From: Bacilli bacterium
Lineage (GTDB): Bacteria; Bacillota_I; Bacilli_A; RFN20; CAG-826
Assembly: GCA_045601325.1 (NCBI GenBank)
Contig: JAZRZI010000008.1
Span: 2,961-66,960, forward strand
DNA length: 64,000 nucleotides
Reading direction: 5' to 3'
Positions 1,710-64,000 of the stretch are shown one piece after another. The number at the start of each line of letters is the position of its first letter. The stretch's first letter is position 1. The position numbers and the translations under genes were made by a program. Below the pieces are notes generated by a model. That model was not told where the DNA came from, ran no database searches, and saw only the letters and a list, made by a program, of their open reading frames with translations.

Positions 1710-2749
1710 ATCATTCCCTCACTTTTTGCTTTTAATTGTCCACACGCAGCATCGATGTCGGATCCAAATTCTTTTCTTATTGTAGCGGTTACTCCACCTT
1801 TGGTTAAACAATCTAAAAATGTATGCACTCTATTTCCAGAACTACGTTTATAATCGTTTTTATTTGTTTCGTTATATGGGATTAAGTTAACATATCCCAT
1901 TGTGCCTTTGATTAAAGTAATCAATTCTTCAGCATGTTCTTTTGTGTCATTTAAGTCTTCTAAAAGAAGATATTCGTAAGTTACTCTTCTGCCTGAAATT
2001 TCTTCGTATTCTTTTACCGCTGGCATAAGAACTTCTAAAGGATATGCTTTGTTAACTTTCATCAAGGCATTTCTAAGTTCGTTATTTGGAGCATGTAAAG
2101 AAATAGCTAAATTAGTTTGTAAACCCTCTCTAGCATACTTTTTAATGCCTTCAACAAGTCCACATGTGGAAACAGTGATGTGTCTAGCTCCAATATCCAA
2201 ACCTTTTTGGTTATTAACAATACGGATAAAATCCATAACGTTATCGTAATTATCAAATGGTTCACCAGTCCCCATAACAACGATATGAGAAACGTGTTGG
2301 CCTTTGCCTTCTTCTTTCAAAAGATTGTTAATGACAAGTATTTGCCCCACCATTTCTTCAGGGAGAAGGTTTCTTTGTTTTCCAAGCATACCAGATGAAC
2401 AAAATGAACACGCCATATTGCAACCAACTTGGCTTGACACGCACACTACGCAACCATAGTTATAGCGCATGAGCACACATTCAACCTTTGCGCCATCATA
2501 AAGTTCAAGCAAAAGTTTAATCGTGCCATCTTGACTAACTTGTTTCAAAAATATCTTTGGCAATTCTAAGCAATATTTCTCTTTGAGAACTTCTCTAAAT
2601 CTTAAAGAAATATCTGTCATTTCATCAAACGAAGTGGCTTTCTTTTCATAAATCCAAGTGTAAAGTTGGATAGCACGATAAGGTTTTTGACCTTCGCTAA
2701 CCATTAATTCTTGAAGTTTTTTCATTTCCATTCCGTAGAGATTAATCAT
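1706..2749 (-). CDS. rlmN: Radical-SAM rRNA/tRNA adenine-C2 methyltransferase RlmN
   Basis: Has the CxxxCxxC radical SAM motif (CNMACSFC) and a C-terminal catalytic Cys region. Its genomic context is conserved. Confidence 0.9.
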   Translation of the reverse strand: MINLYGMEMKKLQELMVSEGQKPYRAIQLYTWIYEKKATSFDEMTDISLRFREVLKEKYCLELPKIFLKQVSQDGTIKLLLELYDGAKVECVLMRYNYGCVVCVSSQVGCNMACSFCSSGMLGKQRNLLPEEMVGQILVINNLLKEEGKGQHVSHIVVMGTGEPFDNYDNVMDFIRIVNNQKGLDIGARHITVSTCGLVEGIKKYAREGLQTNLAISLHAPNNELRNALMKVNKAYPLEVLMPAVKEYEEISGRRVTYEYLLLEDLNDTKEHAEELITLIKGTMGYVNLIPYNETNKNDYKRSSGNRVHTFLDCLTKGGVTATIRKEFGSDIDAACGQLKAKSEGMI

Positions 2750-4031
2750 TGCTATCTTTCTCCATATTCAAAGTCTTTCTAAGTCTAGCAAAGTAAAATG
2801 TTGTATCGCTAGAACCGAATGGGAAAAATTGTTTTTCTTCGCACAAAACAAAATTATTGTGGTTAGAAATAAACTTCTTAATCATGTCTCTTCCTTCTTT
2901 AACGTTCAAAGTAGGAACAGCGTATAAAAGTTCACCATTATCTTCCACTAATAAGGAAGCTTCATGCAAAGCGGTTCTTTCTTCGTCTAATATAGAATCC
3001 AAATCTTCTTGTTTAAATCTTAAGAAGTAATCTGGAACAGTTTTGAACGATGCAAAGTTAGAGTTTCTTGGCATTACAATGAAAGTATGAACAGGTTCTG
3101 AAACGCAAGAAATGATGCTTGTTGAATCTTGTTCATAAATTCTCATTTTGTCTAAACCTAATTCTTGCTTTGTCTTTTTTGCATCGAAATAGCAAGAAGA
3201 ATCATTTGTAATCAAATCAAATTTAGCAAATGTTGAAAACTTGTAAATAAGTTTCATATACACATTTGTTCTATATCCTGTAAATACAGCTATGTTTCTA
3301 AAAGGATCGATATCACAGGTATCAATAGCATAACTGAGAGCAGGACTAAATGTTGCAATTAAATTTTCTTTGTACGCTTCGGTATTCTTTAAAGATTCCT
3401 TTTGGGAATACAAAACCATATCGTTAAATTCACATTCTTCAAATTCTGGATAACACGCTAAAAATTCATTTTTATCGTTCTTGCTAGAATTGACGAGCAA
3501 GAATTGTTTTGAAGACTTAGTATTGGCTCTTAATGTTTTATATAAAAGAGATTCTTTGAAATGTTTTCCCCACATTTTAACAAGCCATAAAGGTGTATTA
3601 TATCTTATGGATAAGAATTCATGTGAATTCTCTTTTAAATCAGTAATGGTTAAAAAATCTTTAGTTTTTGATTTTTCTAAAAAGGATTCAAAGTTAACTT
3701 TATTTTCTTCTTCAACCTCATTCAAAAAAGTAGAAGTAATAAATTCTTTTGCAATTTCTTCATTACTGACGTTAATGAATAAACCATTAGCGAGGAAAAC
3801 GAATAAATCATATTTCACTTTTTTAGTGATATTTGGGAATAGTTCATTAATTTTTCTTTCAAAAACATAAAAGTGTTTTAATGAACAACTCACTAAAGAA
3901 GCGATCGAGCGTCTCTCAACGTTAGTGATTTTTTTATCTTTTGCAAAATTTCTTATCGCAATGGAAAAAGAGATGTCTTCATCCACTACTTTGGAAAGGA
4001 TATTTGAACTAAGTGAAAGTAAATTAGTCAT
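2742..4031 (-). CDS. RsmB/Sun-like protein with a NusB-like N-domain but degenerate methyltransferase motifs (likely a pseudo-enzyme)
   Basis: It has a NusB-like N-terminus, an RsmB-like C-terminal tail (FYFARLRK) and the positional equivalent of rsmB. The motif IV PCS and motif VI TCS cysteines are replaced (MPRNSN, AVPT). Confidence 0.5.
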   Translation of the reverse strand: MTNLLSLSSNILSKVVDEDISFSIAIRNFAKDKKITNVERRSIASLVSCSLKHFYVFERKINELFPNITKKVKYDLFVFLANGLFINVSNEEIAKEFITSTFLNEVEEENKVNFESFLEKSKTKDFLTITDLKENSHEFLSIRYNTPLWLVKMWGKHFKESLLYKTLRANTKSSKQFLLVNSSKNDKNEFLACYPEFEECEFNDMVLYSQKESLKNTEAYKENLIATFSPALSYAIDTCDIDPFRNIAVFTGYRTNVYMKLIYKFSTFAKFDLITNDSSCYFDAKKTKQELGLDKMRIYEQDSTSIISCVSEPVHTFIVMPRNSNFASFKTVPDYFLRFKQEDLDSILDEERTALHEASLLVEDNGELLYAVPTLNVKEGRDMIKKFISNHNNFVLCEEKQFFPFGSSDTTFYFARLRKTLNMEKDSND

Positions 4032-26708: not shown

Positions 26709-27311
26709 ATGAACTTTGAATTAATACTAGCAACATCTAACAAACATAAAGTCCAAGAGGTAAGAAAAATATTATCTCCACACGGTATAATTGTATATGG
26801 TTTAAATGATTTAAACCTTAAACCAGAGGAAGTAATTGAAGATGGCGTTACTTATCAAGCTAACGCTCTAAAAAAGGCCCAAAGTGTGCAAAAACTAACT
26901 TCTATGCCAATCATCGCTGATGATTCAGGTATTGAAGTAGAAGCTTTAGATAATAAACCAGGTTTGCATTCTGCAAGATTTGCGGAAAGCGAAGGTGGCT
27001 ATATTAATGCGATGAATAAAATCATCAAAGCCACAAAAGACAAAAACAATAACAATGCAAGATTTGTTTGCGACATCGTTTTATTAAATGTTGACGAAAA
27101 ACCACTATTATTTGAAGGCATAGCTAACGGGCACATCAAAAATGAAATAATTGGTGATTCCGGATTTGGATATGACCCTATATTCTATTACGATGAATTA
27201 GGCAAAACTTTTGCAGAATTAACTGAAGATGAAAAAAATAAAGTCTCGCACAGAGCAAGAGCTTTAAAGAAATTATTAACTTATCTTAAGATTAATCAAT
27301 TAATCAAGTGA
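26709..27311 (+). CDS. rdgB: Non-canonical purine NTP pyrophosphatase (RdgB/HAM1)
   Basis: ILATSNKHK and FGYDPIF motifs. Confidence 0.85.
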   Translation: MNFELILATSNKHKVQEVRKILSPHGIIVYGLNDLNLKPEEVIEDGVTYQANALKKAQSVQKLTSMPIIADDSGIEVEALDNKPGLHSARFAESEGGYINAMNKIIKATKDKNNNNARFVCDIVLLNVDEKPLLFEGIANGHIKNEIIGDSGFGYDPIFYYDELGKTFAELTEDEKNKVSHRARALKKLLTYLKINQLIK

Positions 27312-28363
27312 CGATAACGTTTAAGAATAGTTTTAAATGCTAAGTGAAAAATCATACAGACTAATCCACCTAGTAAAAATACACCTGCGCCTATGAGAAA
27401 ATACATAGACCAGGTTTTTTCTTTAAAGAAAATGAATGAACAAATAAGACCGGCGGTAAATAAATAAAAGACAATAAATAATGGCAAAGAACCACGTGAT
27501 GCTTTGTAAATACCAATATTATTAGGGTAGATATTATTGGAAATAATTTTAATATGTTTTGCTTCTTCATCTAGTGTCGCGTTAACAACTTTAGTTGGGT
27601 TTCGTTTTGGCTCTTCATCGTTTCTTGCAATCATTGCCTTGCCTAATGCATTAAAACCAACGAATTTATAAGTAAAGCCTTCCATAGTTGGTTGTTTCTT
27701 TTCTAGATATCGTTTTGATTTTTCAACATCATCGATAATATCTTGGTGATATTTTTCTACTTCCTTGCTAACTGAATTAGGATCTAATTTTTGCATTGAA
27801 AGCTCATATAACGCTAATAAAGATTCTCTTGCCTTTAAAAGTTTGTGATTCTTCTCAAAATAGAGTTTTAAACAATCTGCGTCATAGAAATATGATCTAT
27901 ATGAAAGCTTCTTATAAACAAGATACTCGTATTCATCTAAACCAATAGAACATTTGTTCATAAATAAGAACAATGAGTTCAAGTCCGACATTTTAGAAAA
28001 ATAAGATGCGTAATCATTTCCTAACATTAAAGTAAATTCTTCAAATCTATCTCTTCTAAGAGTGGACATGTATAAGAGAGATAAAAGTCTACCGAATCTA
28101 GCTTCTATAGATTCTGGATCAAACGCTAAAATATTAGCAAACATTTCATATGCTTTACCATAATCTTTAACACCATAAAGAATCTTTTTTGCTTTAACAA
28201 CTTTGTTGTGAAGCATAGTTTCATAGTTAGAAATAGCTTCACCAGTGGTGAGTTCGGCCATACAATGAGGGCAATAACAAACCTTTGCAGAACTATTCAC
28301 ATCAAAAATTGCGTTGGTGAATTCTTCAGGATGACAATGTGTACAATAACCTTTTTTAAGACT
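27296..28363 (-). CDS. Hypothetical protein with an N-terminal zinc ribbon, a helical repeat region and a C-terminal double TM
   Basis: CTHCHPEEF...CYCPHC, with two hydrophobic helices at the C-terminus. No enzymatic motif found. Confidence 0.35.
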   Translation of the reverse strand, partial: SLKKGYCTHCHPEEFTNAIFDVNSSAKVCYCPHCMAELTTGEAISNYETMLHNKVVKAKKILYGVKDYGKAYEMFANILAFDPESIEARFGRLLSLLYMSTLRRDRFEEFTLMLGNDYASYFSKMSDLNSLFLFMNKCSIGLDEYEYLVYKKLSYRSYFYDADCLKLYFEKNHKLLKARESLLALYELSMQKLDPNSVSKEVEKYHQDIIDDVEKSKRYLEKKQPTMEGFTYKFVGFNALGKAMIARNDEEPKRNPTKVVNATLDEEAKHIKIISNNIYPNNIGIYKASRGSLPLFIVFYLFTAGLICSFIFFKEKTWSMYFLIGAGVFLLGGLVCMIFHLAFKTILKRYRHLIN

Positions 28364-28367
28364 CATA

Positions 28368-29054
28368 CTAAAATACCGGTGCAAAAACTATTAGACCATA
28401 AACGATAAGGAATTGGCCTACTAAATATGTAATCATGATTGGAAGATCTCTTCTTCTAAAATCATGGACGTAAGTTGAGATGATAACAAGCACATCACTG
28501 ATGAAGAATAAAACATAGCCCACTAATAACATAATGCTAGCAAAGAATTCATCTCCACCTTTAGGTGCATTCTTAATAACTAAATAAACTGTAGAACCAA
28601 TTAATGCGACTAAAAGAAACATATAGAAGTTTCCTTCTAATGTAGGTAATCCACACATTTTGTGATTGAAAATAAATAGAATTAAAGATAACGCAATAAT
28701 GACTCCAAATCCAATGAGATACATAGTCACATTAGTGCATTCAAGAATAAATCTATTAATTGCAAAGAAAAGACATAGGTGTCCAATTAAAAATAAAGTT
28801 GTTCCAATAAAATAACTTGTTTTCTTGTGAACTTTAATAAGGAAAAAGTCACCGACACACGCTAAATAGAAAGGAATATATACAAGCGGATTAGAAGGGA
28901 CAGCAATAGTTAACGCAACCGCTAAAAATAAAACGCAAAAAGGTTTAGTAAACTTTTTAAGTTTTTCTTTTTCGAATAAGCAGAACATAATGTGCACTAA
29001 GGCATATGCTCCGAATAGTGTGAATAGAATCAATATAGGCAATTCGAGTTTCAT
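28368..29054 (-). CDS. YhhN-family (lysoplasmalogenase-like) membrane protein
   Basis: Polytopic, with conserved GD, GH and SD positions (CVGDFFL, LIGHLCLF, FISDVLV). Confidence 0.5.
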   Translation of the reverse strand: MKLELPILILFTLFGAYALVHIMFCLFEKEKLKKFTKPFCVLFLAVALTIAVPSNPLVYIPFYLACVGDFFLIKVHKKTSYFIGTTLFLIGHLCLFFAINRFILECTNVTMYLIGFGVIIALSLILFIFNHKMCGLPTLEGNFYMFLLVALIGSTVYLVIKNAPKGGDEFFASIMLLVGYVLFFISDVLVIISTYVHDFRRRDLPIMITYLVGQFLIVYGLIVFAPVF

Positions 29055-29122
29055 AAGTTCTTATATTATATATAAAGAAAATAATTTAATAAAGTAAATT
29101 ATATTTGGGTTATAATAGACCC

Positions 29123-30178
29123 ATGAAATTTAACGTAAACGAACAAGAAAAAAGCAAAATATATGCATTATTAGAAACTAAGGAAATGAACATCATTGTT
29201 GCAGACATGCTTCAAGCATTCTTTTCTTACGTAGATGCAGTTAAAGGGGTTACCACCACTGACGATTACATTTCCAGTATGTGTGACTTTTGGGAAATCG
29301 ACATGAATAACCAAGAAAATATAGACATCTTGTTCGATAGAGTTATAAAAGAATTGAAAGAATTGAACGATAAGGATTTAAAGAATAACCCTTATTTTAA
29401 AAACATAAACATAAAGCCAGTTAAAATTGGTAATTACTATCTTGGTTATGACACATATTATCCATATCAAGGCTTTGCCTATGATGATTTATCATATCTA
29501 GAATATTACTTAGAAATTTCAAAAGTTGGATATTATTCAAAGGAAGTTAAGTATCCAGTTTTAAAACATAATAAAGATGTCTGGATGAGCATTACTCCTA
29601 ATGAAATTGCCACTATGCAAAATTCAATCGATGAAGCTAATGGCAAAGTTTTAGTTGTTGGCCTTGGTTTAGGATACTATCCATATATGATTTCATTAAA
29701 AAACGATGTTAAAGAAATAATCATTGTTGAAAAGGATAAGGATGTTATTGAAATTTTTAAAAAAAACATACTTCCTCAATTTTCACATAAAGAAAAAATA
29801 ACAATTGTGAATGATGATGCTTATAAATTCATCGAAAACAATAAAACAAAATTTGACTATGCTTTTATCGATATTTGGCATAATCCAAACGATGGGCTTC
29901 CTCTATACATCAAATTTAAACAAATCGAACATAATCTAGGTTCTATAAAAGTATCTTATTGGATTGAATCTTCAATATTGGAATTATATAGACGTTGTTA
30001 TCTCACAGTGGTTGAAGAACAGCTTGAAGGAATGGGTGAATCCAATTATCAAAAAGCTAAAAATGACATGGATAAATTGATTAACTCCATTTACCATAAA
30101 ACAAAAAACGTAACTATAAATAGTTACGCTTCGTTATTAGAATTATTAAGTGATAAAAATATTATTTTGAATATTTAA
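29123..30178 (+). CDS. Spermidine-synthase-fold (aminopropyltransferase-like) protein with an atypical nucleotide-binding loop
   Basis: GKVLVVGLGLGYY...EIIIVEKDKDVIEIFK...FDYAFIDIWHNPNDG matches the SpeE-like Rossmann layout. The GGGDG motif is degenerate. A TATAAT sits just 6 nt upstream of the ATG at 29123, so the mRNA may be leaderless or the start may be downstream. Confidence 0.45.
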   Translation: MKFNVNEQEKSKIYALLETKEMNIIVADMLQAFFSYVDAVKGVTTTDDYISSMCDFWEIDMNNQENIDILFDRVIKELKELNDKDLKNNPYFKNINIKPVKIGNYYLGYDTYYPYQGFAYDDLSYLEYYLEISKVGYYSKEVKYPVLKHNKDVWMSITPNEIATMQNSIDEANGKVLVVGLGLGYYPYMISLKNDVKEIIIVEKDKDVIEIFKKNILPQFSHKEKITIVNDDAYKFIENNKTKFDYAFIDIWHNPNDGLPLYIKFKQIEHNLGSIKVSYWIESSILELYRRCYLTVVEEQLEGMGESNYQKAKNDMDKLINSIYHKTKNVTINSYASLLELLSDKNIILNI

Positions 30179-31697
30179 ATTTGCTTGCTTTGAAAAATAA
30201 GTAATTTCTTTTCTCGTGTTTGAGAATTCTTTGAATTGCAAACATTCCAGTTGCTGCCGCTAAAGGTAAACCACCAGGAGATTGGCACCATTGAGAAGCT
30301 AAATAAAGGTTATTAATTCCATGGATATGACCACTATGCATCAAAATGCCGTTTTTAGATGTCACCATAAATGACATATAGCTGCCTTTATAAGCGTCTG
30401 TATACCTTTCAAAAGTTAAAGGAGATAAAGAATCTAAGTATTCAAAATCTTCTTTAGAGAATTCGGGATATTGGGAAACAATTTTAGAAACTATTTGATT
30501 GCTAATTTCTTTCTTTTTGGAATAATATGCATTTTTATCCTTATCAAAGATTTCTTTCCAATAATCATAAGAATCGTGATATTGCTCAACATAGACTTCC
30601 ATGACAGTTTTGCCATTTCTATCAAAATAATCATCGAATCCAAAACTTCTCATGACAATTGAATGCTGATTTTCTTTACCTATGGTAAGTCCATCTACAG
30701 GGAAATATTGATTATTTGTGTGGAATACAGAATCATATTTTTCTTTATCGACTGCATAATAAGCCAAGAAAGCACTTGGACAAGGGTTCTTGTCTGATTT
30801 GTCGAAACGTTTATTGAAAGGCTTGTTTTTATATTTACCTACTAAAAGTTTATTTAATAAAACATTTGCGTCAACCGCAGAGACGACATAGTCAGCTGCA
30901 ATAAACTCGCCATTATCCAAAGTAACACCTGTGGTTTTCTTTTTGTCAATGTTGATTTGAATTACAGGAGATTTAGTTCTAATAGTGCCACCTAATGAAA
31001 GATATCTTTCTTCCATATTATTTACTAAGCCTTTAGAAACCTTTTTAGGAATGCCTCCATTTTGATAAACGATGGTACCAAAACTATAAATCAAAGCATA
31101 TGCACTGCCAGGTCCTGGTTGAAATTGATTAAAGAAGAATCTTAGTATTGGGGATTTGAATTTTTTGCAATATTTTTCACAACTAGATGTAGCAATTCTC
31201 GCCATAAAGAATATGTAAGGAAATAGCTTGAATCCTGTCTTTAATAACCTACCAAAACTCATAGTATTAACTGGCTCAGTAAGTGGCAATGGAACATTCA
31301 TTATTTTTCTTAAGTCCTTAAAAAATCTATTGATTGCACGTTTGTCATTTGGGCCAACTCTTAAGAATTCTTCTTTAAGCTTTTTAGGATCAGCGTATAG
31401 AGTTAACTTTTCTCCTTGATAATCCATCACGCCAATTACCTTTTGAACAAAAATATTGTCATCATCAGTTATAACACCAAGATTTTTCCAAATGTTATAT
31501 AAATCTGTATCTTTATGAGTGCCAGTTAACCAGTGAACACATCCATCGATATGATAGCCTTTTCTTTCCCACCAAGTGCAAAGACCGCCAACTCTATCAT
31601 GTCGTTCTAAAACAATAGATTCGAATCCATTTTGTTGAGCGTATATTCCAGCAGAAAGACCGGAAATTCCCCCTCCAATAATTACTATTTTCTTCAT
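30162..31697 (-). CDS. FAD-dependent oxidoreductase (CrtI/amine-oxidase superfamily)
   Basis: N-terminal dinucleotide-binding fold KIVIIGGGISGLSAG...LERHDRVGG. Confidence 0.7.
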   Translation of the reverse strand: MKKIVIIGGGISGLSAGIYAQQNGFESIVLERHDRVGGLCTWWERKGYHIDGCVHWLTGTHKDTDLYNIWKNLGVITDDDNIFVQKVIGVMDYQGEKLTLYADPKKLKEEFLRVGPNDKRAINRFFKDLRKIMNVPLPLTEPVNTMSFGRLLKTGFKLFPYIFFMARIATSSCEKYCKKFKSPILRFFFNQFQPGPGSAYALIYSFGTIVYQNGGIPKKVSKGLVNNMEERYLSLGGTIRTKSPVIQINIDKKKTTGVTLDNGEFIAADYVVSAVDANVLLNKLLVGKYKNKPFNKRFDKSDKNPCPSAFLAYYAVDKEKYDSVFHTNNQYFPVDGLTIGKENQHSIVMRSFGFDDYFDRNGKTVMEVYVEQYHDSYDYWKEIFDKDKNAYYSKKKEISNQIVSKIVSQYPEFSKEDFEYLDSLSPLTFERYTDAYKGSYMSFMVTSKNGILMHSGHIHGINNLYLASQWCQSPGGLPLAAATGMFAIQRILKHEKRNYLFFKASKFKYSK

Positions 31698-32975
31698 TTA
31701 TCTTGCTTCCTTATCTAAACGATCAGCAACAAGTTGGCAATTATTATAGATTTCTTCTATAGGTTGACCGACAAAAAATTCTCCATCATCATAAAGAATC
31801 TTTCCGTTAATCATCGTCATTTTAATAATATCTTTTGAACCACTATAAACTATGTTATTAACAATGCTATTTAATGGCTGCATATTAGGTCTAGTTAAAT
31901 CAATTTCAATTAAATCTGCTAATTTATTTACTTCCAAAATGTCAGCATCAAATAATCCCATTGCATGAGCTCCATTGACAGTTGCCATCTTAAGAATTTC
32001 ATATGCAGGTAACGCTTTAGGGTCACTATTTTGCAATTTTCCAAGTGAATAAACCAATTGCATTTCTTTGAACATGTCTAAACAATTGTTACTTGCTGGC
32101 CCATCTGTACCTATGCAAACATTTAACCCACTTTCTAAATATTTACTTACAGGACATATACCACTCGCTAGCTTTGAGTTACTGCCAGGGCAAGTAACTA
32201 CTGATACATTATGTTTTTTAAATATTTCGATATCTTTATCATCTAAATAGTTGCAATGAAAAGCGACACCACCATTTTCATAAAATCCCAAGGATTCAAA
32301 AAATTGAATTGGTGAAAAACCATTGTGTCTTTTCTTGCACTCTTCAACTTCACTTAATGTTTCGGAAGTATGAGTAGCGAAAGGAGATTTCGTTTCTTTT
32401 AAAACTCTTGAAGTTACCTCGTAATCAATATTTTCAGAAGTGTATTCAGCGTGTAGACCAATCACATATGTGACTAAACTATTTTTACTAGAGTTGAAAT
32501 CAAAGTAGTAATCTTTCAAATTTTCCTCTGATGTGTAATTAGAATAAGTGCCTTGCAAAACAGCACGCATGCCAAATTCTTCTGCCGCTTTAGCGGTTGA
32601 TAAAGGATAGAAATATTGGTCATAACAAGCAGTTATTCCACTAGTCAAATATTCTAAAAATGCGACTTTAGATAAGTGATATGGATCTTCAACTTTCAAA
32701 TGTCTTTCCCTAGGAAACACAACATTAAAAAGCCAATCTTGCAACGAAAGATCATCTGCACAACTGCGTAAAAATGTCATCGCACTATGAGTGTGTACGT
32801 TCTTAAAGCCAGGCATAACAACATTGCCGTTGCATTCTCTAATAACATCAAATGGTGAGAACTTCTTATAATCTTCACCAATATATGCAATTCTATTTTC
32901 AAATATTACAATATTCGAGAGAAATATAGGAGTGTTATCCATTTTTAACACCCTAGCATTTTTAAGTAAAATTTT
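31698..32975 (-). CDS. Metal-dependent amidohydrolase, MTA/SAH deaminase (MtaD)-like
   Basis: NVHTHSAMT metal-binding motif, ~425 aa and other amidohydrolase-1 features. Confidence 0.65.
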   Translation of the reverse strand, partial: KILLKNARVLKMDNTPIFLSNIVIFENRIAYIGEDYKKFSPFDVIRECNGNVVMPGFKNVHTHSAMTFLRSCADDLSLQDWLFNVVFPRERHLKVEDPYHLSKVAFLEYLTSGITACYDQYFYPLSTAKAAEEFGMRAVLQGTYSNYTSEENLKDYYFDFNSSKNSLVTYVIGLHAEYTSENIDYEVTSRVLKETKSPFATHTSETLSEVEECKKRHNGFSPIQFFESLGFYENGGVAFHCNYLDDKDIEIFKKHNVSVVTCPGSNSKLASGICPVSKYLESGLNVCIGTDGPASNNCLDMFKEMQLVYSLGKLQNSDPKALPAYEILKMATVNGAHAMGLFDADILEVNKLADLIEIDLTRPNMQPLNSIVNNIVYSGSKDIIKMTMINGKILYDDGEFFVGQPIEEIYNNCQLVADRLDKEAR

Positions 32976-33046
32976 CATACAATGCATTTTATCATTAACT
33001 TTTTGTTTTTGTATACAAAAAGCAACACATTTGTTAAATTATAAAT

Positions 33047-34723
33047 ATGAAAAACGAACAAAATAACAATGTAAAAGTGCTATGCACAAAAAAGATTCAA
33101 CCTAAAAAAATTGAACCAACAACTAAAAATAAGAAGAAAAAGAAGAAACATATATTTGGAAAAATCCTCCTTACATTTTTCATCGTTTTTATTGTTTTAC
33201 CAATTGGTTTAGTCTATGCATTATGTTACACAAATAAATGGGAAGACATTAAAGCTACCGATGAGACCACTGAAGAAATATTTAATAGAATAAAAGTTGA
33301 TTCACTAGATTACTCAACATCCGCATATAATCCAAGAGTACAATTGAGATTAACTCAAGATGATTTGAATGGATTTTTAAAGCAATACACACAAGAATTC
33401 ACAACCGATAATCCTTTGATGAAATTTGTAAATAATTTCTATATCAAGATCGAGGACAACCAATACGAATTCGTTTTTGAAATAAAAACAAAAATTTTCT
33501 GTACAAAGCTAATCTTACAAGCTGAATTCCAAGAAATAGGTAATAGAGAAGATTACACAAAATCATATTTTGATTTTAAAATAAAAACATTAAAAGTTGG
33601 AAGATTATCAGGATTTGATGCATTGATTATCAAATTAGTAAATTCTGAAACAATCACATCTTTCTTTAATGATGCAGGCATAAGTGCACAAGTCGATTTA
33701 GAAAATAAAGAAATCAAATATTATGAAAAAGATTTAATCGAAGATATAAAGAAGCAAGAAGGCTTTGAAGATGATGATTTATACTTTTCTGTTGTCAATG
33801 ACGCTTTGCAAAGAAGAATGCTTAAGTTCGATTTTAACAGCGATAATTCGTTAACAGTTTCAGCATCTTTGAAAGATATGAAATATAACGATACTTATTG
33901 TGATCATAATAAGGAATTGGGTTACAACTTTTCCGAGAAAAGAGAAATGGTTGTTCAAGCCCTAAATGAAGGCATTATAAACGAAGATAACGCAGGAAAC
34001 TTATTTGATTATCTAATTCATGGTTATGAATTTGCTAAACAAGATAATACAGTTAGAATGCAATTTACAGGTGACATTTTTAAAACTCTTGGTATCGATG
34101 ATGTCGCAACATACGAAGGATATGAAAAAATCAGTATTTTAAACCATGATTATGCAACACTTGATAGCAGGATTGCAAATTCAGTAGATCCAACTAATTT
34201 AGCAACAGGTGGAGTCATTGCCTCGCTTAATGAAAATGACATTAATAACTTTATTCGTGCTTCTGAAATGATTGGCGTAAAATCTCTATTTATGAGAAAA
34301 ACAAGCGAAACAGAATGGAAAGCAAATTATGTTGCTATTAATGATTTCTATTGTGACATCGTAGATAATGGCGTCAATTATGTTGTAGGCATTGATATCA
34401 ATGGTTATAACACAGTTCTAAGTTTTGTCACTACTTTTGAAAATATTGAAGGTTATAAATTAAGTTTTAATACAGACAAAGTTTACTATGGCAATACAGA
34501 AGCAACCGAATCAATGAAAATTGTTATCTTAAGCATATTAGAAAGTGCAATTAACGCGGATGCCACTATGGGTGTTGAAATAGTAAATAACCATTTCATA
34601 TTTGATTTTGCTTCGGGTATTGAAGAAAGCGGGTATGGAAATTATATTGATCCATCGAGAGGAAGAATCGAAGTAAAAGATTCCACTGATGGCAATGGTA
34701 GAATTAATTTCCTACTGAATTAA
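33047..34723 (+). CDS. Membrane-anchored hypothetical protein with a Lys-rich cytoplasmic N-terminus and a large extracytoplasmic domain
   Basis: A poly-K stretch, a single N-terminal TM, and no recognisable motifs. Confidence 0.35.
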   Translation: MKNEQNNNVKVLCTKKIQPKKIEPTTKNKKKKKKHIFGKILLTFFIVFIVLPIGLVYALCYTNKWEDIKATDETTEEIFNRIKVDSLDYSTSAYNPRVQLRLTQDDLNGFLKQYTQEFTTDNPLMKFVNNFYIKIEDNQYEFVFEIKTKIFCTKLILQAEFQEIGNREDYTKSYFDFKIKTLKVGRLSGFDALIIKLVNSETITSFFNDAGISAQVDLENKEIKYYEKDLIEDIKKQEGFEDDDLYFSVVNDALQRRMLKFDFNSDNSLTVSASLKDMKYNDTYCDHNKELGYNFSEKREMVVQALNEGIINEDNAGNLFDYLIHGYEFAKQDNTVRMQFTGDIFKTLGIDDVATYEGYEKISILNHDYATLDSRIANSVDPTNLATGGVIASLNENDINNFIRASEMIGVKSLFMRKTSETEWKANYVAINDFYCDIVDNGVNYVVGIDINGYNTVLSFVTTFENIEGYKLSFNTDKVYYGNTEATESMKIVILSILESAINADATMGVEIVNNHFIFDFASGIEESGYGNYIDPSRGRIEVKDSTDGNGRINFLLN

Positions 34724-46980: not shown

Positions 46981-47688
46981 ATGAAATACTTTAAATACAC
47001 TTTTGATAACAATGTTATTGCGCTTACCACCACTACAGAAATTGGTAACATGGCTTTTCAAGTCGGCAATAATCCAAGTGATGTAATTACCAATAGAACT
47101 AAGGTTTTAAACGATTTATCTATTGATAAAAATCATTTAGTTTTTGTCCACCAAACTCATAGTGATGTAATAAAAGAAGTTACTATTAAGGATTTAGGAA
47201 AAGGCTCAAACGACTTTGTTAGTGGTGTTGAAGCTGATGCTTTATATACAAAGGAAAAAGGAATTGCATTAGCAATATTCCATGCAGATTGTGTTCCACT
47301 ATTCTTTTATGATCCTACTGTTCCTCTTATAGGAATTATTCATGCTGGCTATATAGGAACTATTAAAAAGATTACTTACAAAGCATTAAAGGAAGTTATC
47401 GAAAAGGAACATTTAAACCCAGATAATATTCAAGTATATGCTGGTCCACATAGAAGAAAGGAATCATTCTTCGTTGGCGAAGAACAAAAAGAAGAAATAT
47501 TGTCCGCAAATTGTTTATACGAGGATGGATATTTCGATGCAACTAATAGTAACATCAACTTCGTGCGCGCATGCGATATAAATAATATTAAAGATATACA
47601 AATAGATACAGTTAAGGACATAAATTGCTTTTCAGCATATAAAAAGACACCAGTCGGTAGAATGGCGTCCATTATTCTTTTAAAGTAA
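46981..47688 (+). CDS. pgeF: Peptidoglycan editing factor PgeF (YfiH/DUF152 laccase-domain protein)
   Basis: HQTHSDV, HADCVP and HAG motifs. Confidence 0.8.
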   Translation: MKYFKYTFDNNVIALTTTTEIGNMAFQVGNNPSDVITNRTKVLNDLSIDKNHLVFVHQTHSDVIKEVTIKDLGKGSNDFVSGVEADALYTKEKGIALAIFHADCVPLFFYDPTVPLIGIIHAGYIGTIKKITYKALKEVIEKEHLNPDNIQVYAGPHRRKESFFVGEEQKEEILSANCLYEDGYFDATNSNINFVRACDINNIKDIQIDTVKDINCFSAYKKTPVGRMASIILLK

Positions 47689-58535: not shown

Positions 58536-59300
58536 TTATTTCTCTTCCTTCTCCCTTCTTGCTTTAAGATATGCACTTAGTTTCTTGTCAATCCATCTTG
58601 CAATTTTGAAGAGACAAGTAATGTAAACAATAAGACAAGCACCTAATACGAACCAGTTATAAACCTTATCAAAAGTAAATGGTAAGAATAAATCCTTTGG
58701 AATTAAAGACACTCCAAATACCACTGTGGCAATTCCAACAGCTTTACCAATTGCTCCATAAAGCATATGCAACCACCACTTCATTTTCATAGATCCTACA
58801 CATAGACAAATAAAGTCATCTGGGAATAGTGGAAGTAAATACATTATTGGAACATAAACCATACCTTTTTCATTGATTAGTTCTTTGGTCTTTTCGTATT
58901 CTTCCTTGCCAAATATCTTGATGATGAGTTTAGAGCCACCAAATCGACCTAAAGCATCAATGAAAATGTAAGAGAGAATACAACCACCAAATGTTGCTAA
59001 AAAGCACTTCCAATTTGCTCCAAATAATGCAATTCCTAGCCATACAAAGACACCACTACCAACCGGGTTCATACAAAGAAGTGTCGCTCCAATTGCTTCT
59101 GCTAGAACATAAACTATGTAAAGCATTGGGTTGTCTTTGAGTTCTTCAAACATAGCATTGTTAAAAACAAAGCCATTATCAAATTGAATTACACCAGTAA
59201 GATAGAAAATTAAGAAGAAAATACTACTTATTGCGATACCAATTGCTAAGACAATTAAGAGTTGAAGTAATTGCTTTTTATGATTCTTAAGCCATTTCAT
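58536..59300 (-). CDS. TVP38/TMEM64 (DedA-superfamily) membrane protein
   Basis: Polytopic. The LLPLFPDDFICLCVGSMKM segment matches the DedA/TVP38 re-entrant loop motif. Its start codon overlaps the stop of the giant upstream ORF by 1 nt. Confidence 0.55.
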   Translation of the reverse strand: MKWLKNHKKQLLQLLIVLAIGIAISSIFFLIFYLTGVIQFDNGFVFNNAMFEELKDNPMLYIVYVLAEAIGATLLCMNPVGSGVFVWLGIALFGANWKCFLATFGGCILSYIFIDALGRFGGSKLIIKIFGKEEYEKTKELINEKGMVYVPIMYLLPLFPDDFICLCVGSMKMKWWLHMLYGAIGKAVGIATVVFGVSLIPKDLFLPFTFDKVYNWFVLGACLIVYITCLFKIARWIDKKLSAYLKARREKEEK

Positions 59301-62300
59301 TAGTCTTTCACTCCAACATATGTTAAGGCATCTTTGTGACTTGCTCCCTTACTCATCAAGAAAGAGATAAGTGTTTTTTGAGAGTTCCCGGTTACTGAAT
59401 ACCCAGCAAGATACATAAGTAAAACTTTCTCTTGTTTAGACATTTGAAGTTTATTTATGTAATCAATAACTAATTCTTTTCTACTCTTCTTCTTTGTTTC
59501 AGTAATAGAACCAGTCTTTTGTAAGATTGAAATATATTTAGCAAGTTCGACATTGCCATTGGTTAAAACAAGTAAGTTTTCAAGTTTTGATGAACCACTA
59601 CTACCAATTGCTCTTGCTTTAGCAAAACCATAATAGGCATTATAAACGCTTGAAATGAGTTTGGCTTTTTCTTCGCTTGTAGCAACTCTATACTCTGGTG
59701 TATTCATCACTTTAACAACTTGATTTTCACTTTGTTGATATAGTTTCTTAAATTGAGTAATTTGAGCCGCAGTGAGTTGAATTTGATTACCATTATCATC
59801 AGTGTAGGCAGTAGGAATACTTCTTGGAATAGCATTATAACCTTGAGATGAAAGTATAACTAATTCAGCATTGATTTGGTCATTAGTTACTCCACCTTTG
59901 AACTCACTGACCATATAGGAAAGATATGCTTGTGCGGACTTTGTGTCTCCACTTTCAATATATTGGTTATAGGATTTGGTTAAACCATTAACAGTAGAAG
60001 CATAGAAAATATTATTGAATTTCAAAGCTGCTTCCGAATCAATGAGTTTGGTAATTCCATAGATATACTTTTTGATTTCATCAATTGGAAGCCCTGTAAG
60101 ACCTTCAAGAATAGAAATTAAACCAGTTAATAATGCACCACTAACTTTACCTTCTACAATAGAAGAATAAATATTATGTGCCACTTGTCCTAAGTCGTTG
60201 AGCATAGAAATGCTTGGAGCATCAATCTCATAACCATTCAAGACAGTGCCAGTGAGAGTTCCAACAACAGGAATCCAATTTAAGAATGAGTTAGTAGCAA
60301 CTGTTGTAAGTATTTCTTCTGCTTTGTATTCGCTAAATTTCTTCTTACCATAGAGGAAGTTAGCGAGCATACCAACAGCGGTGACAGCAATACCATTGAT
60401 AATCATCTTAGCAAGGATATTAAGAGGTATTCTCTTACCACCACTAAACTTATATTGTTTATAACCATCACTCTTGTTTTGTTGAGTTTTGGCTTCACCA
60501 TTGGCTTTATATTCTTCTTCACGAGCATTATTAAGATTTTCTTTAAGTGTCTTATTAGTTGCTCTTTGTTCATTGACTTTTGCTCTTGCTTCAGCAATTA
60601 AACCGTTGATATCTTCTTCAACTGAAGTATCAGCAAATTGACCTTCATCTCCATTGATCCAAGCAACTTTATTGAGTTCAATTTCTTTTGAATAAATTTT
60701 CGAGCCTTGTCCACCAGCATATTCTTCGGCTTGTATTTTACTTGTTGAAACAAATGTTCCTTGTTCAATCTCTTTTGAAGAATAAATAGTTATTTTTCCA
60801 CTTTCAAGTGCTTTTTGTGCGTCTTCTCTTGAGAAATCTCCCCAAGCAAATTGACCTTCTTTTTCATCATTCAAAGCAAGGACTTCTTCCCAAGTTTTAA
60901 TATCTTCAACCTTACGGATACCTACATGATATGAGTCTTCCATTGGGTTATATTTATTAACAATACCAAGTTGTTGTTCTTTCTTATTATTAAGCAAATT
61001 ATCTCTTTCTTCTCTTAAAGTGTCGAGTTGTTTGAGACCATTGTTGTATGCTTCTTCAGCTTTAGAAGTAACCTTTTGTGCTTCTTCATACTTAGCAAGT
61101 GCATTTTCTAAATCTGCTTTTAATTGAGCCTCATCAACATTGTGGAATTGATGATATAAAGAACCTTGAACAGCATATGAAGCAACATTCGCTCTCATAG
61201 CACCAGCAAGGACATTGAAAGTCATTCTTGTAATTGCATTATCATTGAGCAAGTTTTGATGAAGTGGAGTAGAACCAACATTAAGCATATTGTATAAAGA
61301 ATACATATCTCTAACATATTGCTTACCTTCAACACTATTAACGTCAACACCATTCTTCAAACAATCATTGACTATGTCTAAAAGACCACTATCCATAGCG
61401 AGTTTATCCCAAAACTTAACCGGAGACATAACTATGGATTGTATCTTTCCACTAATACCACTAAATGTTGTAGGAGCATTACCTTTTAAGAGTTCTTGTG
61501 AAGCACTACGATATTTGAGTTCAGGTATTACTTCATCAATAAGCATATGAGCTGCTTCTCTAACTTCTTTACCATATTTGCTTAATTTAACCATTTTGGC
61601 TAAATCAATATTGGAAGTTGTATGTGATAAGTAGTTCTTAACACTTCTAATAGGAGAAGAAATCTTACTTGTAGCATAACCACTCATAAATAGAGCAGTT
61701 GTTTTTGTGATGAAGTTTTGACTTTCTGGGTTTTTAATAATCCATTGATCAGTGATATCGGTAAGATATTTGAGTTCATTTCTTCCATACTTTTCACTAA
61801 TGTGTTGAGCAACTGAAATACCATTACTGTCTTTACTATTAAGTAAGGCATAAAAATCATGAACCGCTGGTTTAAGATAAATTTGTTGACCAATTCTTTT
61901 AATATAGTCACCAATCTCGTCCATGATATCAACGACACCTAAAGCACTTAAGTCTTCAGTTCTCTTTAATCCATATCTAAAGGAAGGGTCACCAATAACC
62001 CTTTTATCAATAGAGGTTTGGAAATAAGAATCTTTATGTAATGTGGAATAGTCTTTAACTAAGTCAACATCAACATATCCACTTTCTTTTTTGAAATCAA
62101 CAAACTTACTTTGTAAGTATTCATTGATAACTTTATAGTGCAAGTTTTCAGCAAGTTTAATGGTTTCTGGTGTCATTAAGGCATCAATATCAGCTTTTAA
62201 TTGTTCCAAGTGACCTTCGCCTTGATAGAACCATACTGGTCTACCTTGTTTGTCTTCGGTGTGATAACCACCATAGTTAATATTTTCAGCATTAACTGGA

Positions 62301-64000
62301 GCAAGATGAGTTTCGATATAGGCTTTAATAAGTTCACCTTTTGTAATCTTAACACCGTTAATCTTCCCGGCATTATCTTTACTATGCCAACCTTTTGGTA
62401 AGAAATCACTTACAAACTCATTGCTCTTAACAACCCATTCAGTATTGTTTCCATGTGCTTGTAAAATTCTAATTTGACCTTTAGTGATTTCACCATAGCC
62501 ATATTTAACAAAGAGTTCTCCACCCTTTCCACCAAGTGTCTTAGTAATTGGGTCTAAAACCATTTGAAGTTTAGACATATCATAAGAAGCAATTTCATTA
62601 GAAGTTGCGATTGCTCTACTTCTTCTTTCTGGAATTACTCTTCTTACCATTTTTTGTTCATAGGCAAGTAAATCTTTGTTGTATTGCTTTAATGCTTTAT
62701 AAGTTTCTAAAGATAACTCTGGTTTACCTAAGTCGCCTCTTAAGAGAACCTCTAATTCTTCAAGGTCTCTCTTGATAGTGTCATCATAGTTCATGATGCT
62801 CTTTTCATAGTTTTCTTCGGTGTAAATCTTATTAGCAGTAGAGATTGCTTCGATAGTTTTATCGGTTGCTTTATAAGTTCCACCATGTCTTTCTAAAGAA
62901 GCAAGTAGTTTTGAGAGCATATTGATAGTATGGACATCTCTATCTTCTAACTTGTCATAGGTATAGTCGCCTTCCGCTAAATCTTTAATCTTAGAGCGGT
63001 TTCTAGATAAGAAGTTGGTGTAATCCTTTTTAGCCTTAACTTCTTTGATTTGAGACTTAAGGTCATTGTTAATTGACTTAAAGATTTCATATGCTTTAGC
63101 AAGTCTTTCATTAGCCTTTTCTCTAATCTTAGCAATTTGTTCATTCTTCTTTTCAAGAGATAAATCAAATCTCTTTTCGAGTTTAGCAATTCTAGAAAGT
63201 TCACTCTTTGCTTTAAGCAAACCAGTGATAGCCTTAACAAAGTCATCTTTATGTCCTGCTAAGAACTCTTGTCTAACACTTCTATCTGGGTTAAATGAAA
63301 CAATCTTAGAGTTAGCAATATCATCTGCTAATTCACTAATAGCATTTGCAATTTCACTTTCTTTAAGAGTATTAAAATCTTCAAATAGTCTCTTTGCGGT
63401 TTCACCTTTAAGGAGTTTAATTTGATATTCATATCCTTCCTTTTTAGGGAAGATTTTATCCATAATTTGTTTCTTGACAATATCAACAATGTCCTCTGCC
63501 TTTTTCATAGATAAAACTCTCTCATGGTTTAGATCACCATAAGCCTTGATATATCTTGGCTCACTCTCTTTTGGAAGAGACATCATTATTTCATCATTTG
63601 CCTTTGCCATTGCGACAGAAGTCTTGGCAATTTCACTAACATTTATTGATTTTGTTGGTAAAACCTCAATATTTTCAATGTTTTTGAATTTAGAATCGAC
63701 ATATGTAATAGCACTATGCCACTCACCATCTTCACCATTAACAGCTTTAGAGATAATCATGTATCTATCTCCATCTTTGATTATAGATGAACCTTTGTGC
63801 TCTCTAATAAGTTCAAAATATTCTTTTATTTGTTCAGTAGAATAATCTTGTTGAATTGCTTTTGCAACGTCTCTATTAACAGTTAATCCACTTGCATTAT
63901 TTGGCACTTCGATGCCTTTAGAAACAAACGAACTAATTGGAATAATTGCACCTTGAACAGTGCCATCACTATTGTCAACTGTTCCTAAATAAATAATAGA
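59300..64000 (-). CDS. Giant protein, at least 1,566 codons and 5'-truncated by the window edge. It is coiled-coil rich with a Gly-rich hydrophobic block, resembling a phage tape-measure or ICE/polyvalent-type protein
   Basis: The reading frame stays open from 59300 to the window end; the track's start at 63907 is an internal GTG. There are two long coiled-coil stretches, a ~120-aa Gly-rich hydrophobic region (approximately nt 60083-60439) and no nucleotide-binding or catalytic motif. Confidence 0.4.
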   Translation of the reverse strand, partial: SIIYLGTVDNSDGTVQGAIIPISSFVSKGIEVPNNASGLTVNRDVAKAIQQDYSTEQIKEYFELIREHKGSSIIKDGDRYMIISKAVNGEDGEWHSAITYVDSKFKNIENIEVLPTKSINVSEIAKTSVAMAKANDEIMMSLPKESEPRYIKAYGDLNHERVLSMKKAEDIVDIVKKQIMDKIFPKKEGYEYQIKLLKGETAKRLFEDFNTLKESEIANAISELADDIANSKIVSFNPDRSVRQEFLAGHKDDFVKAITGLLKAKSELSRIAKLEKRFDLSLEKKNEQIAKIREKANERLAKAYEIFKSINNDLKSQIKEVKAKKDYTNFLSRNRSKIKDLAEGDYTYDKLEDRDVHTINMLSKLLASLERHGGTYKATDKTIEAISTANKIYTEENYEKSIMNYDDTIKRDLEELEVLLRGDLGKPELSLETYKALKQYNKDLLAYEQKMVRRVIPERRSRAIATSNEIASYDMSKLQMVLDPITKTLGGKGGELFVKYGYGEITKGQIRILQAHGNNTEWVVKSNEFVSDFLPKGWHSKDNAGKINGVKITKGELIKAYIETHLAPVNAENINYGGYHTEDKQGRPVWFYQGEGHLEQLKADIDALMTPETIKLAENLHYKVINEYLQSKFVDFKKESGYVDVDLVKDYSTLHKDSYFQTSIDKRVIGDPSFRYGLKRTEDLSALGVVDIMDEIGDYIKRIGQQIYLKPAVHDFYALLNSKDSNGISVAQHISEKYGRNELKYLTDITDQWIIKNPESQNFITKTTALFMSGYATSKISSPIRSVKNYLSHTTSNIDLAKMVKLSKYGKEVREAAHMLIDEVIPELKYRSASQELLKGNAPTTFSGISGKIQSIVMSPVKFWDKLAMDSGLLDIVNDCLKNGVDVNSVEGKQYVRDMYSLYNMLNVGSTPLHQNLLNDNAITRMTFNVLAGAMRANVASYAVQGSLYHQFHNVDEAQLKADLENALAKYEEAQKVTSKAEEAYNNGLKQLDTLREERDNLLNNKKEQQLGIVNKYNPMEDSYHVGIRKVEDIKTWEEVLALNDEKEGQFAWGDFSREDAQKALESGKITIYSSKEIEQGTFVSTSKIQAEEYAGGQGSKIYSKEIELNKVAWINGDEGQFADTSVEEDINGLIAEARAKVNEQRATNKTLKENLNNAREEEYKANGEAKTQQNKSDGYKQYKFSGGKRIPLNILAKMIINGIAVTAVGMLANFLYGKKKFSEYKAEEILTTVATNSFLNWIPVVGTLTGTVLNGYEIDAPSISMLNDLGQVAHNIYSSIVEGKVSGALLTGLISILEGLTGLPIDEIKKYIYGITKLIDSEAALKFNNIFYASTVNGLTKSYNQYIESGDTKSAQAYLSYMVSEFKGGVTNDQINAELVILSSQGYNAIPRSIPTAYTDDNGNQIQLTAAQITQFKKLYQQSENQVVKVMNTPEYRVATSEEKAKLISSVYNAYYGFAKARAIGSSGSSKLENLLVLTNGNVELAKYISILQKTGSITETKKKSRKELVIDYINKLQMSKQEKVLLMYLAGYSVTGNSQKTLISFLMSKGASHKDALTYVGVKD

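Follow-up and report, generated by a model that had tools for sequence, protein, structure and literature searches.

Gene order kept within one lineage, rather than a polyamine module, likely explains adjacent SpeE-like, flavoprotein and MtaD/DadD-type deaminase genes in a Bacilli genome

Here we have followed up a predicted three-gene module in a 64-kb, low-GC (~32%) chromosomal stretch from an uncultured Bacilli bacterium (assembly GCA_045601325.1, contig JAZRZI010000008.1, positions 2,961 to 66,960; hereafter the window, whose own numbering is used throughout). A gene for a spermidine-synthase-like (SpeE-like) protein, one for a flavin adenine dinucleotide (FAD) protein and one for an amidohydrolase stand next to each other in the window, and the original prediction took them for a small module handling polyamines or 5'-methylthioadenosine (MTA). 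Our analysis does not support such a module, because the SpeE-like protein lacks the residue specific for decarboxylated S-adenosylmethionine (dcSAM) and has no specific tie to SpeE, the flavoprotein is of the CrtD/CrtI type, the SpeE-like gene is convergent to its neighbours, and the trio is found in one small clade, within a collinear block. We consider it likely instead that the three enzymes have no functional tie and are neighbours because gene order was kept in a single lineage of host-associated, uncultured Bacilli of low GC content. The features to which the argument refers are the following.

29123..30178, plus strand: SpeE-like gene, 351 aa from ATG 29123; class I (Rossmann) methyltransferase-fold protein of a family without a name
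30162..31697, minus strand: FAD gene, 511 aa; CrtI/CrtD-family FAD oxidoreductase with the amine-oxidase superfamily fold, carotenoid-desaturase branch
31698..32978, minus strand: amidohydrolase gene, MtaD/DadD-type; open reading frame (ORF) reaching 32987 (429 aa), likely start ATG 32978
30162..30178, no strand assigned: convergent 3'-end overlap of the SpeE-like and FAD genes, 17 nt
29111..29116, plus strand: TATAAT -10 box ending 6 nt before ATG 29123, with no Shine-Dalgarno (SD) sequence
31706..31712, minus strand: SD-like AAGGAAG, 8 nt before the FAD ATG and within the end of the amidohydrolase gene; read directly
32986..32994, minus strand: extended -10 element TGATAAAAT, ending 7 nt before ATG 32978
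30105..30132, no strand assigned: palindromic hairpin CGTAACTATAAATAGTTACG in the 3' end of the SpeE-like coding sequence; from a consensus scan only

The SpeE-like protein had been described as having a spermidine-synthase fold. Pfam Spermine_synth (PF01564) does match its residues 162-251 over profile positions 8-99 of 186, at 38 bits (gathering threshold 22.9), but profile and structure searches place SpeE no nearer to the 351-aa protein than other methyltransferases. Scores against the NCBIfam SpeE equivalogs are 20-34 bits against cut-offs of 250-472, which leaves the protein outside those families. Among 36 members of the SpeE-like family, 25 match Spermine_synth weakly, 13 match TRM5/TYW2 and 7 match Methyltransf_24, and 11 have no Spermine_synth match at E<=1e-3. 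Searched against PDB sequences, the family profile finds the O-methyltransferase-like 3NTV (9e-6) and then a UPF0020 methyltransferase, both before the spermidine synthases (2.6e-4 and weaker), with all matches limited to residues 175-251; nor does the fold prove closest to SpeE structures specifically. The protein does have the hallmarks of class I S-adenosylmethionine (SAM)-dependent methyltransferases, namely a Rossmann core with a G-x-G-x-G loop, strand 2 followed by an acidic residue and strand 3 by D/A, and the "spermidine-synthase fold" amounts to this generic class I core. The core is flanked by helical domains at the N-terminus (residues 1-98) and the C-terminus (282-351), with a beta-rich segment (99-158) following the former, and none of these matched anything known.

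Motif conservation in the core points to the likely cofactor. Motif I reads G180-L-G-L-G-Y185, within the GLGLGYY loop (residues 180-186 of the 351-aa protein) that had rightly been called degenerate relative to GGGDGG, and the other motif residues are E203, D232-A233 and D250-I-W-H...D257-G. G180/G182/G184, E203, D232-A233 and D250 are invariant or nearly so across the family, and further family-specific conservation is seen at W154-M-S..P-N-E161, W252-H253, D257-G258, Y279-W280 and R291. L183, nearly invariant in the family, aligns with the Asp of SpeE's GGGDGG, a residue that binds the amine of dcSAM and is thought to repel the carboxylate of SAM; changing that Asp to Ile (D103I) abolished spermidine synthase (SPDS) activity and created a low SAM-dependent methyltransferase activity (PMC3725402). 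Since Leu stands in place of Asp while the SAM-motif residues are kept, aminopropyl transfer is disfavoured and a SAM-using enzyme favoured; the same invariance or near-invariance of the cofactor-binding residues makes it very unlikely that the protein is non-catalytic, as had been suggested. To judge from these residues, the protein most likely uses SAM rather than dcSAM.

The family to which it belongs is large. A word-indexed search returned 446 SpeE-like proteins, and at 50% identity there are 765 clusters at E<=1e-30 and 2836 at E<=1e-10, the best cluster matches being nearly all full-length at 340-380 aa. Members occur in at least 577 species-level genomes, almost all of them metagenome-assembled genomes from the gut, the rumen and comparable sources that carry the label Bacilli, Erysipelotrichales or Erysipelotrichaceae; the homologues are annotated there as "hypothetical protein" or "predicted methyltransferase". 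The family is acidic throughout (median pI 5.2, range 4.6-6.4), a trait not usual among RNA methyltransferases and one that would fit a small-molecule or protein substrate; a role as an RNA methyltransferase was considered and, with the whole family acidic, judged less likely.

The flavoprotein had been linked to polyamine oxidation through the amine-oxidase superfamily; by NCBIfam and PDB searches it is instead of the CrtI/CrtD type. Its best NCBIfam model is crtI_fam (TIGR02734), at 97 bits and thus short of the cut-off of 238. The only full-length PDB match is CrtD gamma-carotene desaturase 4REP (6e-12 with the single sequence, 5e-22 with the family profile), and CrtI 4DGK matches at 3e-19 over residues 7-323 (~60% of the protein). 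With the family profile, FMS1, monoamine oxidase (MAO) and LSD1 match only about the first 50 residues (up to residue 104 with the single sequence), a region that is the FAD-binding motif. Full-length similarity of the polyamine oxidase (PAO)/MAO type, including the substrate domain, was absent, whereas full-length sequence and structural similarity to the CrtI/CrtD phytoene-desaturase family was found; because CrtD alone matches over the full length and FMS1 and MAO match only at the N-terminus, the protein is placed in the carotenoid-desaturase and not the amine-oxidase branch. It is basic (pI 9.3). No crtB/crtM-type or other carotenoid genes were seen in the 64-kb window, and a literature search on COG1233/CrtI-like enzymes in gut bacteria gave no useful lead to function. 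We also observed an invariant N-terminal motif in this family, G37-G38-x-C40..W43.R45.G47...D51-G52-C53.H55-W56..G59-T60, with two Cys and aromatic residues, which aligned poorly in the 4REP match that we inspected; the motif could be the signature of a separate subfamily with chemistry of its own.

For the amidohydrolase the predicted assignment stands: PDB and NCBIfam searches group it with deaminases of MTA, S-adenosylhomocysteine (SAH) and 5'-deoxyadenosine and not with guanine or cytosine deaminases or chlorohydrolases. Its best PDB matches are the MTA/SAH deaminases 4F0R (1.6e-58), 4DYK/4GBD, 3LNP and TM0936 (2.8e-53), compared with 5.6e-41 for atrazine chlorohydrolase (over the C-terminal half only), 1.6e-32 for 8-oxoguanine deaminase and ~1e-21 for guanine deaminase. 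Alignment with 4F0R recovers the HxH, H, HxxE, H and D ligands and the W..P.E ribose motif, as NVHTHS, GLHAEYT, HTSET, AFHCNYL, GTDG and DWL..VFPRE; by reference to TM0936, we take these residues to be metal ligands, catalytic residues and the ribose-binding Glu. The best NCBIfam models are archaeal MtaD/DadD-like families, the DadD model and the TRZ/ATZ family, and the protein scores below all equivalog cut-offs (PRK06038, 336 against 609; DadD PRK07228, 257 against 522; MtaD PRK15493, 183 against 779). These likenesses indicate that it most likely deaminates SAH, MTA or 5'-deoxyadenosine. A deamination route for these three compounds has been described for Thermotoga and methanogens, and DadD/MtaD deaminate SAH in organisms that use the S-inosylhomocysteine (SIH) route (PMC10978960). 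Clearance of SAH, MTA and 5'-deoxyadenosine serves every SAM-using enzyme in the cell.

Gene order was compared across 80 loci from other species, drawn from the at least 577 genomes that carry the SpeE-like family and inspected over flanks of up to 10 kb. The FAD gene is present in none of these 80. In 19 of them an amidohydrolase gene is found no more than 10 kb from the SpeE-like gene (14 directly adjacent and convergent, 5 more nearby), and the loci with genes for RdgB (15) and for hyp362, a 362-aa protein (16), are nearly identical to those with the amidohydrolase. The neighbours in the other ~60 loci are unrelated, among them ABC exporters, GatA/GatB, rubrerythrin, an acyl-CoA ligase, NUDIX, a glycosyltransferase and ribosomal protein S10, and the genes to either side of the SpeE-like gene usually lie on the other strand. 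We had considered assigning the family a function from an operon partner and rejected this, its neighbours being heterogeneous.

Closer relatives came from metagenome contigs (L081-83, L087-89). L081-83 and L089 carry the full trio as amidohydrolase and FAD genes in one direction with the SpeE-like gene converging on them, at 46-49% (FAD) and 47-49% (SpeE-like) identity to the window; L087 has the SpeE-like and FAD genes with a CCA-adding enzyme gene where the deaminase would be, and L088 has the SpeE-like and deaminase genes and no FAD gene. Where FAD homologues are more distant (39-41% identity), their genes come after one for a cation P-type ATPase, with neither a SpeE-like nor a deaminase gene there. 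On a simple neighbour-joining tree of the SpeE-like proteins, the FAD-bearing loci (the window, L081, L087 and L089) form one cluster, and the deaminase-adjacent loci occupy one larger region with a few secondary losses. Collinearity between the window and L081 extends to the genes for ProRS and an EAL-like protein of 582 aa. The trio, found only in the window, L081-83 and L089, thus belongs to one tree cluster inside a longer collinear backbone, and does not behave as a conserved module; nor are all three genes oriented so as to be co-transcribed, since the SpeE-like gene converges on its two neighbours, and a shared direction with abutting ends is seen for the amidohydrolase and FAD genes alone. 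The prediction had itself named three outcomes that would count against it, of which two came about, fully or in large part: the flavoprotein groups with carotenoid desaturases, and conservation of the neighbourhood is weak.

We propose that an ancestral collinear backbone ran from RdgB and hyp362 through the SpeE-like and deaminase genes to ProRS and the EAL-like gene, and decayed in other lineages. In the sub-clade of the window, the flavoprotein gene would have been inserted once between the SpeE-like and deaminase genes and become translationally coupled to the latter. The SpeE-like protein would be a stand-alone, probably leaderless, acidic enzyme that methylates an acceptor with SAM, possibly a cationic small molecule or a protein, and would release SAH and not MTA. 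The metal-dependent MtaD/DadD-type deaminase would convert the SAH, MTA and 5'-deoxyadenosine of all SAM-using enzymes to inosine derivatives, and the CrtI/CrtD-type flavoprotein, by analogy with its family, may act on a hydrophobic isoprenoid or lipid-like substrate. Several points weigh against this reading. The amidohydrolase gene is the most frequent single neighbour of the SpeE-like gene, and a second arrangement, with the deaminase ~5 kb upstream of the SpeE-like gene, occurs in four loci at two other places in the tree. The FAD gene still adjoins the SpeE-like gene where the deaminase is gone (L087). The comparison itself covers 80 of at least 577 genomes and uses a simple neighbour-joining tree. 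Some selective linkage of the SpeE-like gene to an SAH/MTA deaminase may exist.

Such a linkage could take the form of a loose coupling of two genes, in which the deaminase is kept near a SAM-dependent methyltransferase to relieve its product inhibition and the flavoprotein is a passenger. This would fit a deaminase found near the SpeE-like gene more often than any other gene (19 of 80) and arranged in two ways at least, and the SAH deamination by DadD/MtaD in SIH-route organisms (PMC10978960), but we think it unlikely: the two genes are convergent and thus not co-transcribed, about three quarters of the sampled species do not have both within 10 kb, adjacency tracks the RdgB-hyp362 backbone as plain collinearity predicts, and SAH clearance benefits every methyltransferase in the cell. 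A bolder proposal, which we hold to be quite unlikely, is that the SpeE-like proteins are a new and widespread family of SAM-dependent alkyl-/methyltransferases in uncultured gut and rumen Bacilli, without a Pfam family of their own, whose acidic invariant pocket (E131, E161, D250, W252, H253, D257, E282) would serve to modify either a cationic amine, for instance a polyamine, or else a basic protein N-terminus or lysine, with the recurrent MtaD-type deaminase as dedicated scavenger of the by-product.

The predicted module itself, in which an aminopropyltransferase would make a polyamine and MTA, MtaD would deaminate the MTA and the flavoprotein would oxidise polyamines, now appears very improbable. 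Leu replaces the dcSAM-specific Asp, an equivalent of the change that inactivates a real SPDS (PMC3725402), the flavoprotein is CrtD/CrtI-like and not PAO-like, SpeE ranks no nearer than other methyltransferases, and the trio is confined to one small clade. These points stand against a closest Pfam family that is Spermine_synth (weakly, in 25 of 36 members), an MtaD/DadD-like deaminase, a flavoprotein within the amine-oxidase superfamily, and an acidity of the SpeE-like protein and its conserved pocket residues that is compatible with an amine substrate. Furthermore, a Pfam sweep of most other window ORFs of >=90 aa returned only housekeeping functions (PrkC/PP2C, RlmN, PriA, Gmk, the F1Fo ATPase operon, glycerol kinase, ProRS, TyrRS, TrpRS, RNase J, Maf and NAD kinase); speE, speD, pot, mtn (including mtnN), metK and luxS genes were not found elsewhere in the 64 kb, a result that holds for the window and not the whole genome.

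Least credible, and in our view barely so at all, is a lipid-modifying pair. In Bfa/Tms-type systems, an FAD-reductase and a methyltransferase together make 10-methyl fatty acids, and by analogy the flavoprotein and the SpeE-like protein would do the like while the deaminase removes SAH. In four genomes an FAD enzyme of the amine-oxidase/CrtI superfamily does adjoin a methyltransferase-fold gene, the flavoprotein is basic (pI 9.3) and from a family that acts on hydrophobic substrates, and a YhhN-family membrane protein is encoded upstream in the window. The methyltransferase, however, is not of the cyclopropane-fatty-acid-synthase type, the genes are convergent, all 80 of the other SpeE-like loci are without the FAD gene, and its distant homologues adjoin a cation ATPase and not a methyltransferase. 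We retain shared gene order in one lineage as the likely explanation of the trio.

On re-reading, all the sequence-level statements of the prediction were borne out: the three ORFs, the convergent FAD and SpeE-like genes with their 17-nt overlap at 30162-30178, the GLGLGYY loop, and the TATAAT 6 nt before the ATG. The SpeE-like frame was also right, and only its length of 357 aa, which counts from TTG 29105, gives way to 351 aa from ATG 29123; the end of the region, put at 32975, was 3 nt off. A database protein 100% identical to the SpeE-like protein is 351 aa long, and the Met at ATG 29123 is where the alignments of 35 homologues start, so the start is correctly assigned. A mis-assigned start, with initiation at TTG 29105, had been offered as the alternative to a leaderless transcript and is ruled out by these alignments. 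For the amidohydrolase, residue 4 of the 429-aa form is where 15 of 22 alignments to homologues begin, and ATG 32978 is therefore its likely start. The RdgB and hyp362 genes also overlap convergently, by 16 nt (27296-27311), and in relatives the FAD/SpeE-like overlap measures 4-35 nt; since such tail overlaps are common in this compact genome, we attach no special meaning to the 17 nt.

The alternative thus set aside, the leaderless transcript gains support from a family-wide comparison of upstream regions. In the window, the TATAAT at 29111-29116 without an SD sequence has the geometry of a leaderless mRNA, which would probably start at the A of ATG 29123. Across 57 distinct upstream regions of SpeE-like homologues (loci L001-L089), a TAnnnT ends 5-9 nt before the start in 41, 31 regions have at most one mismatch from TATAAT, an upstream TG is present in 14, and an SD-like sequence in only 5, compared with 6 of 6 for thioredoxin control genes from the same loci. 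A typically leaderless start is, on this upstream pattern, well supported for the family. As a separate observation, RdgB genes of the same loci have a -10-like hexamer near the start in 8 of 17.

Upstream of the amidohydrolase, we observed that the first ATG of its ORF (32987) overlaps the extended -10 element TGATAAAAT, and that ATG 32978 sits 7 nt after the hexamer. This element is a probable leaderless promoter of the amidohydrolase-FAD pair, which would make the amidohydrolase a second, probably leaderless gene. The amidohydrolase stop abuts the FAD start (TAAATG), with AAGGAAG 8 nt upstream of the ATG, and because of this junction and SD-like sequence the two genes likely form an operon and would be co-transcribed. 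A putative terminator for it is the hairpin at 30105-30132, a perfect 8-12-bp palindrome (12-bp stem) 30 nt past the FAD stop, which is terminator-like on the minus strand and was flagged by the consensus scan on the plus strand too.

Other genes of the window gave observations in their own right. A 558-aa protein at 33047-34723 (plus strand) has no Pfam or NCBIfam match, and in 6 loci from another lineage (L020, L028, L029, L038, L046, L061) a relative of it is encoded directly upstream of the SpeE-like gene, in divergent orientation. The hyp362 protein (27296-28384, minus strand) likewise matches no family; its N-terminus carries CxxC...CxxC motifs and its C-terminus a membrane segment, and it stands beside RdgB in 16 of 80 loci, with the 16-nt convergent overlap. 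Firmicutes usually carry rsmB between priA and the rlmN-PP2C-prkC genes; the 429-aa ORF at this place in the window (2742-4031, minus strand) scores 24 bits, below the cut-off, with the RsmB/F methyltransferase model and would be a very diverged RsmB or a replacement. A 1486-aa ORF at 59300-63760 (minus strand) has no significant Pfam match save a marginal TRAP_beta-like stretch. At 46981-47688 (plus strand) lies a gene for a protein of the Cu-oxidase_4 (YfiH/PgeF/FAMIN) family, some members of which are reported to have purine-nucleoside activities, including MTA-related ones.

As a polyamine module, then, the finding does not stand and little follows from it; we take the three for ordinary housekeeping genes in collinear order. 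What emerges is a large and well-conserved class I methyltransferase-fold family of host-associated Bacilli without a dedicated family model, prone to be mislabelled "spermidine synthase" and so to give a false hint of polyamine synthesis in uncultured gut organisms. The family also offers a clear case, by comparison across its members, of leaderless starts being conserved, and the MtaD/DadD-type deaminase hints at an inosine route for the clearance of SAM by-products in these genomes.

When compared with known systems, the SpeE-like protein shares with SpeE (PF01564) the class I Rossmann core, the G-x-G-x-G loop, the acidic residue ending strand 2, the D-A/G motif and the Asp after strand 4, as well as a beta-rich segment ahead of the core and an acidic character. 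The two differ in that only ~80 residues match, that Leu takes the place of the dcSAM-specific Asp, that D-I-W-H-x-P-x-D-G stands where SpeE has its D-S-S-D-P putrescine loop, and that the SpeE-like protein has additional helical domains at both ends (1-98 and 282-351). Small-molecule N-/O-methyltransferases (GAMT 3ORH and family-3 COMT-like O-methyltransferases) show 10-17% identity to it without family membership at the sequence level, and have a different domain architecture. The amidohydrolase is homologous over its full length to MtaD (TM0936, 4F0R) and DadD (E 1e-53 to 1e-58), with metal ligands, catalytic Glu and Asp and ribose-binding W..P.E kept, and differs in falling under every NCBIfam equivalog cut-off. 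With FMS1, maize PAO, SMOX and MAO the flavoprotein shares the superfamily fold and the N-terminal FAD-binding motif; from CrtI/CrtD (4REP, 4DGK; TIGR02734) it is set apart by 19% identity, a score below the family cut-off, the lack of carotenoid genes nearby, and an invariant motif of its own family, GG-x-C..W.R.G...DGC.HW, with its two Cys.

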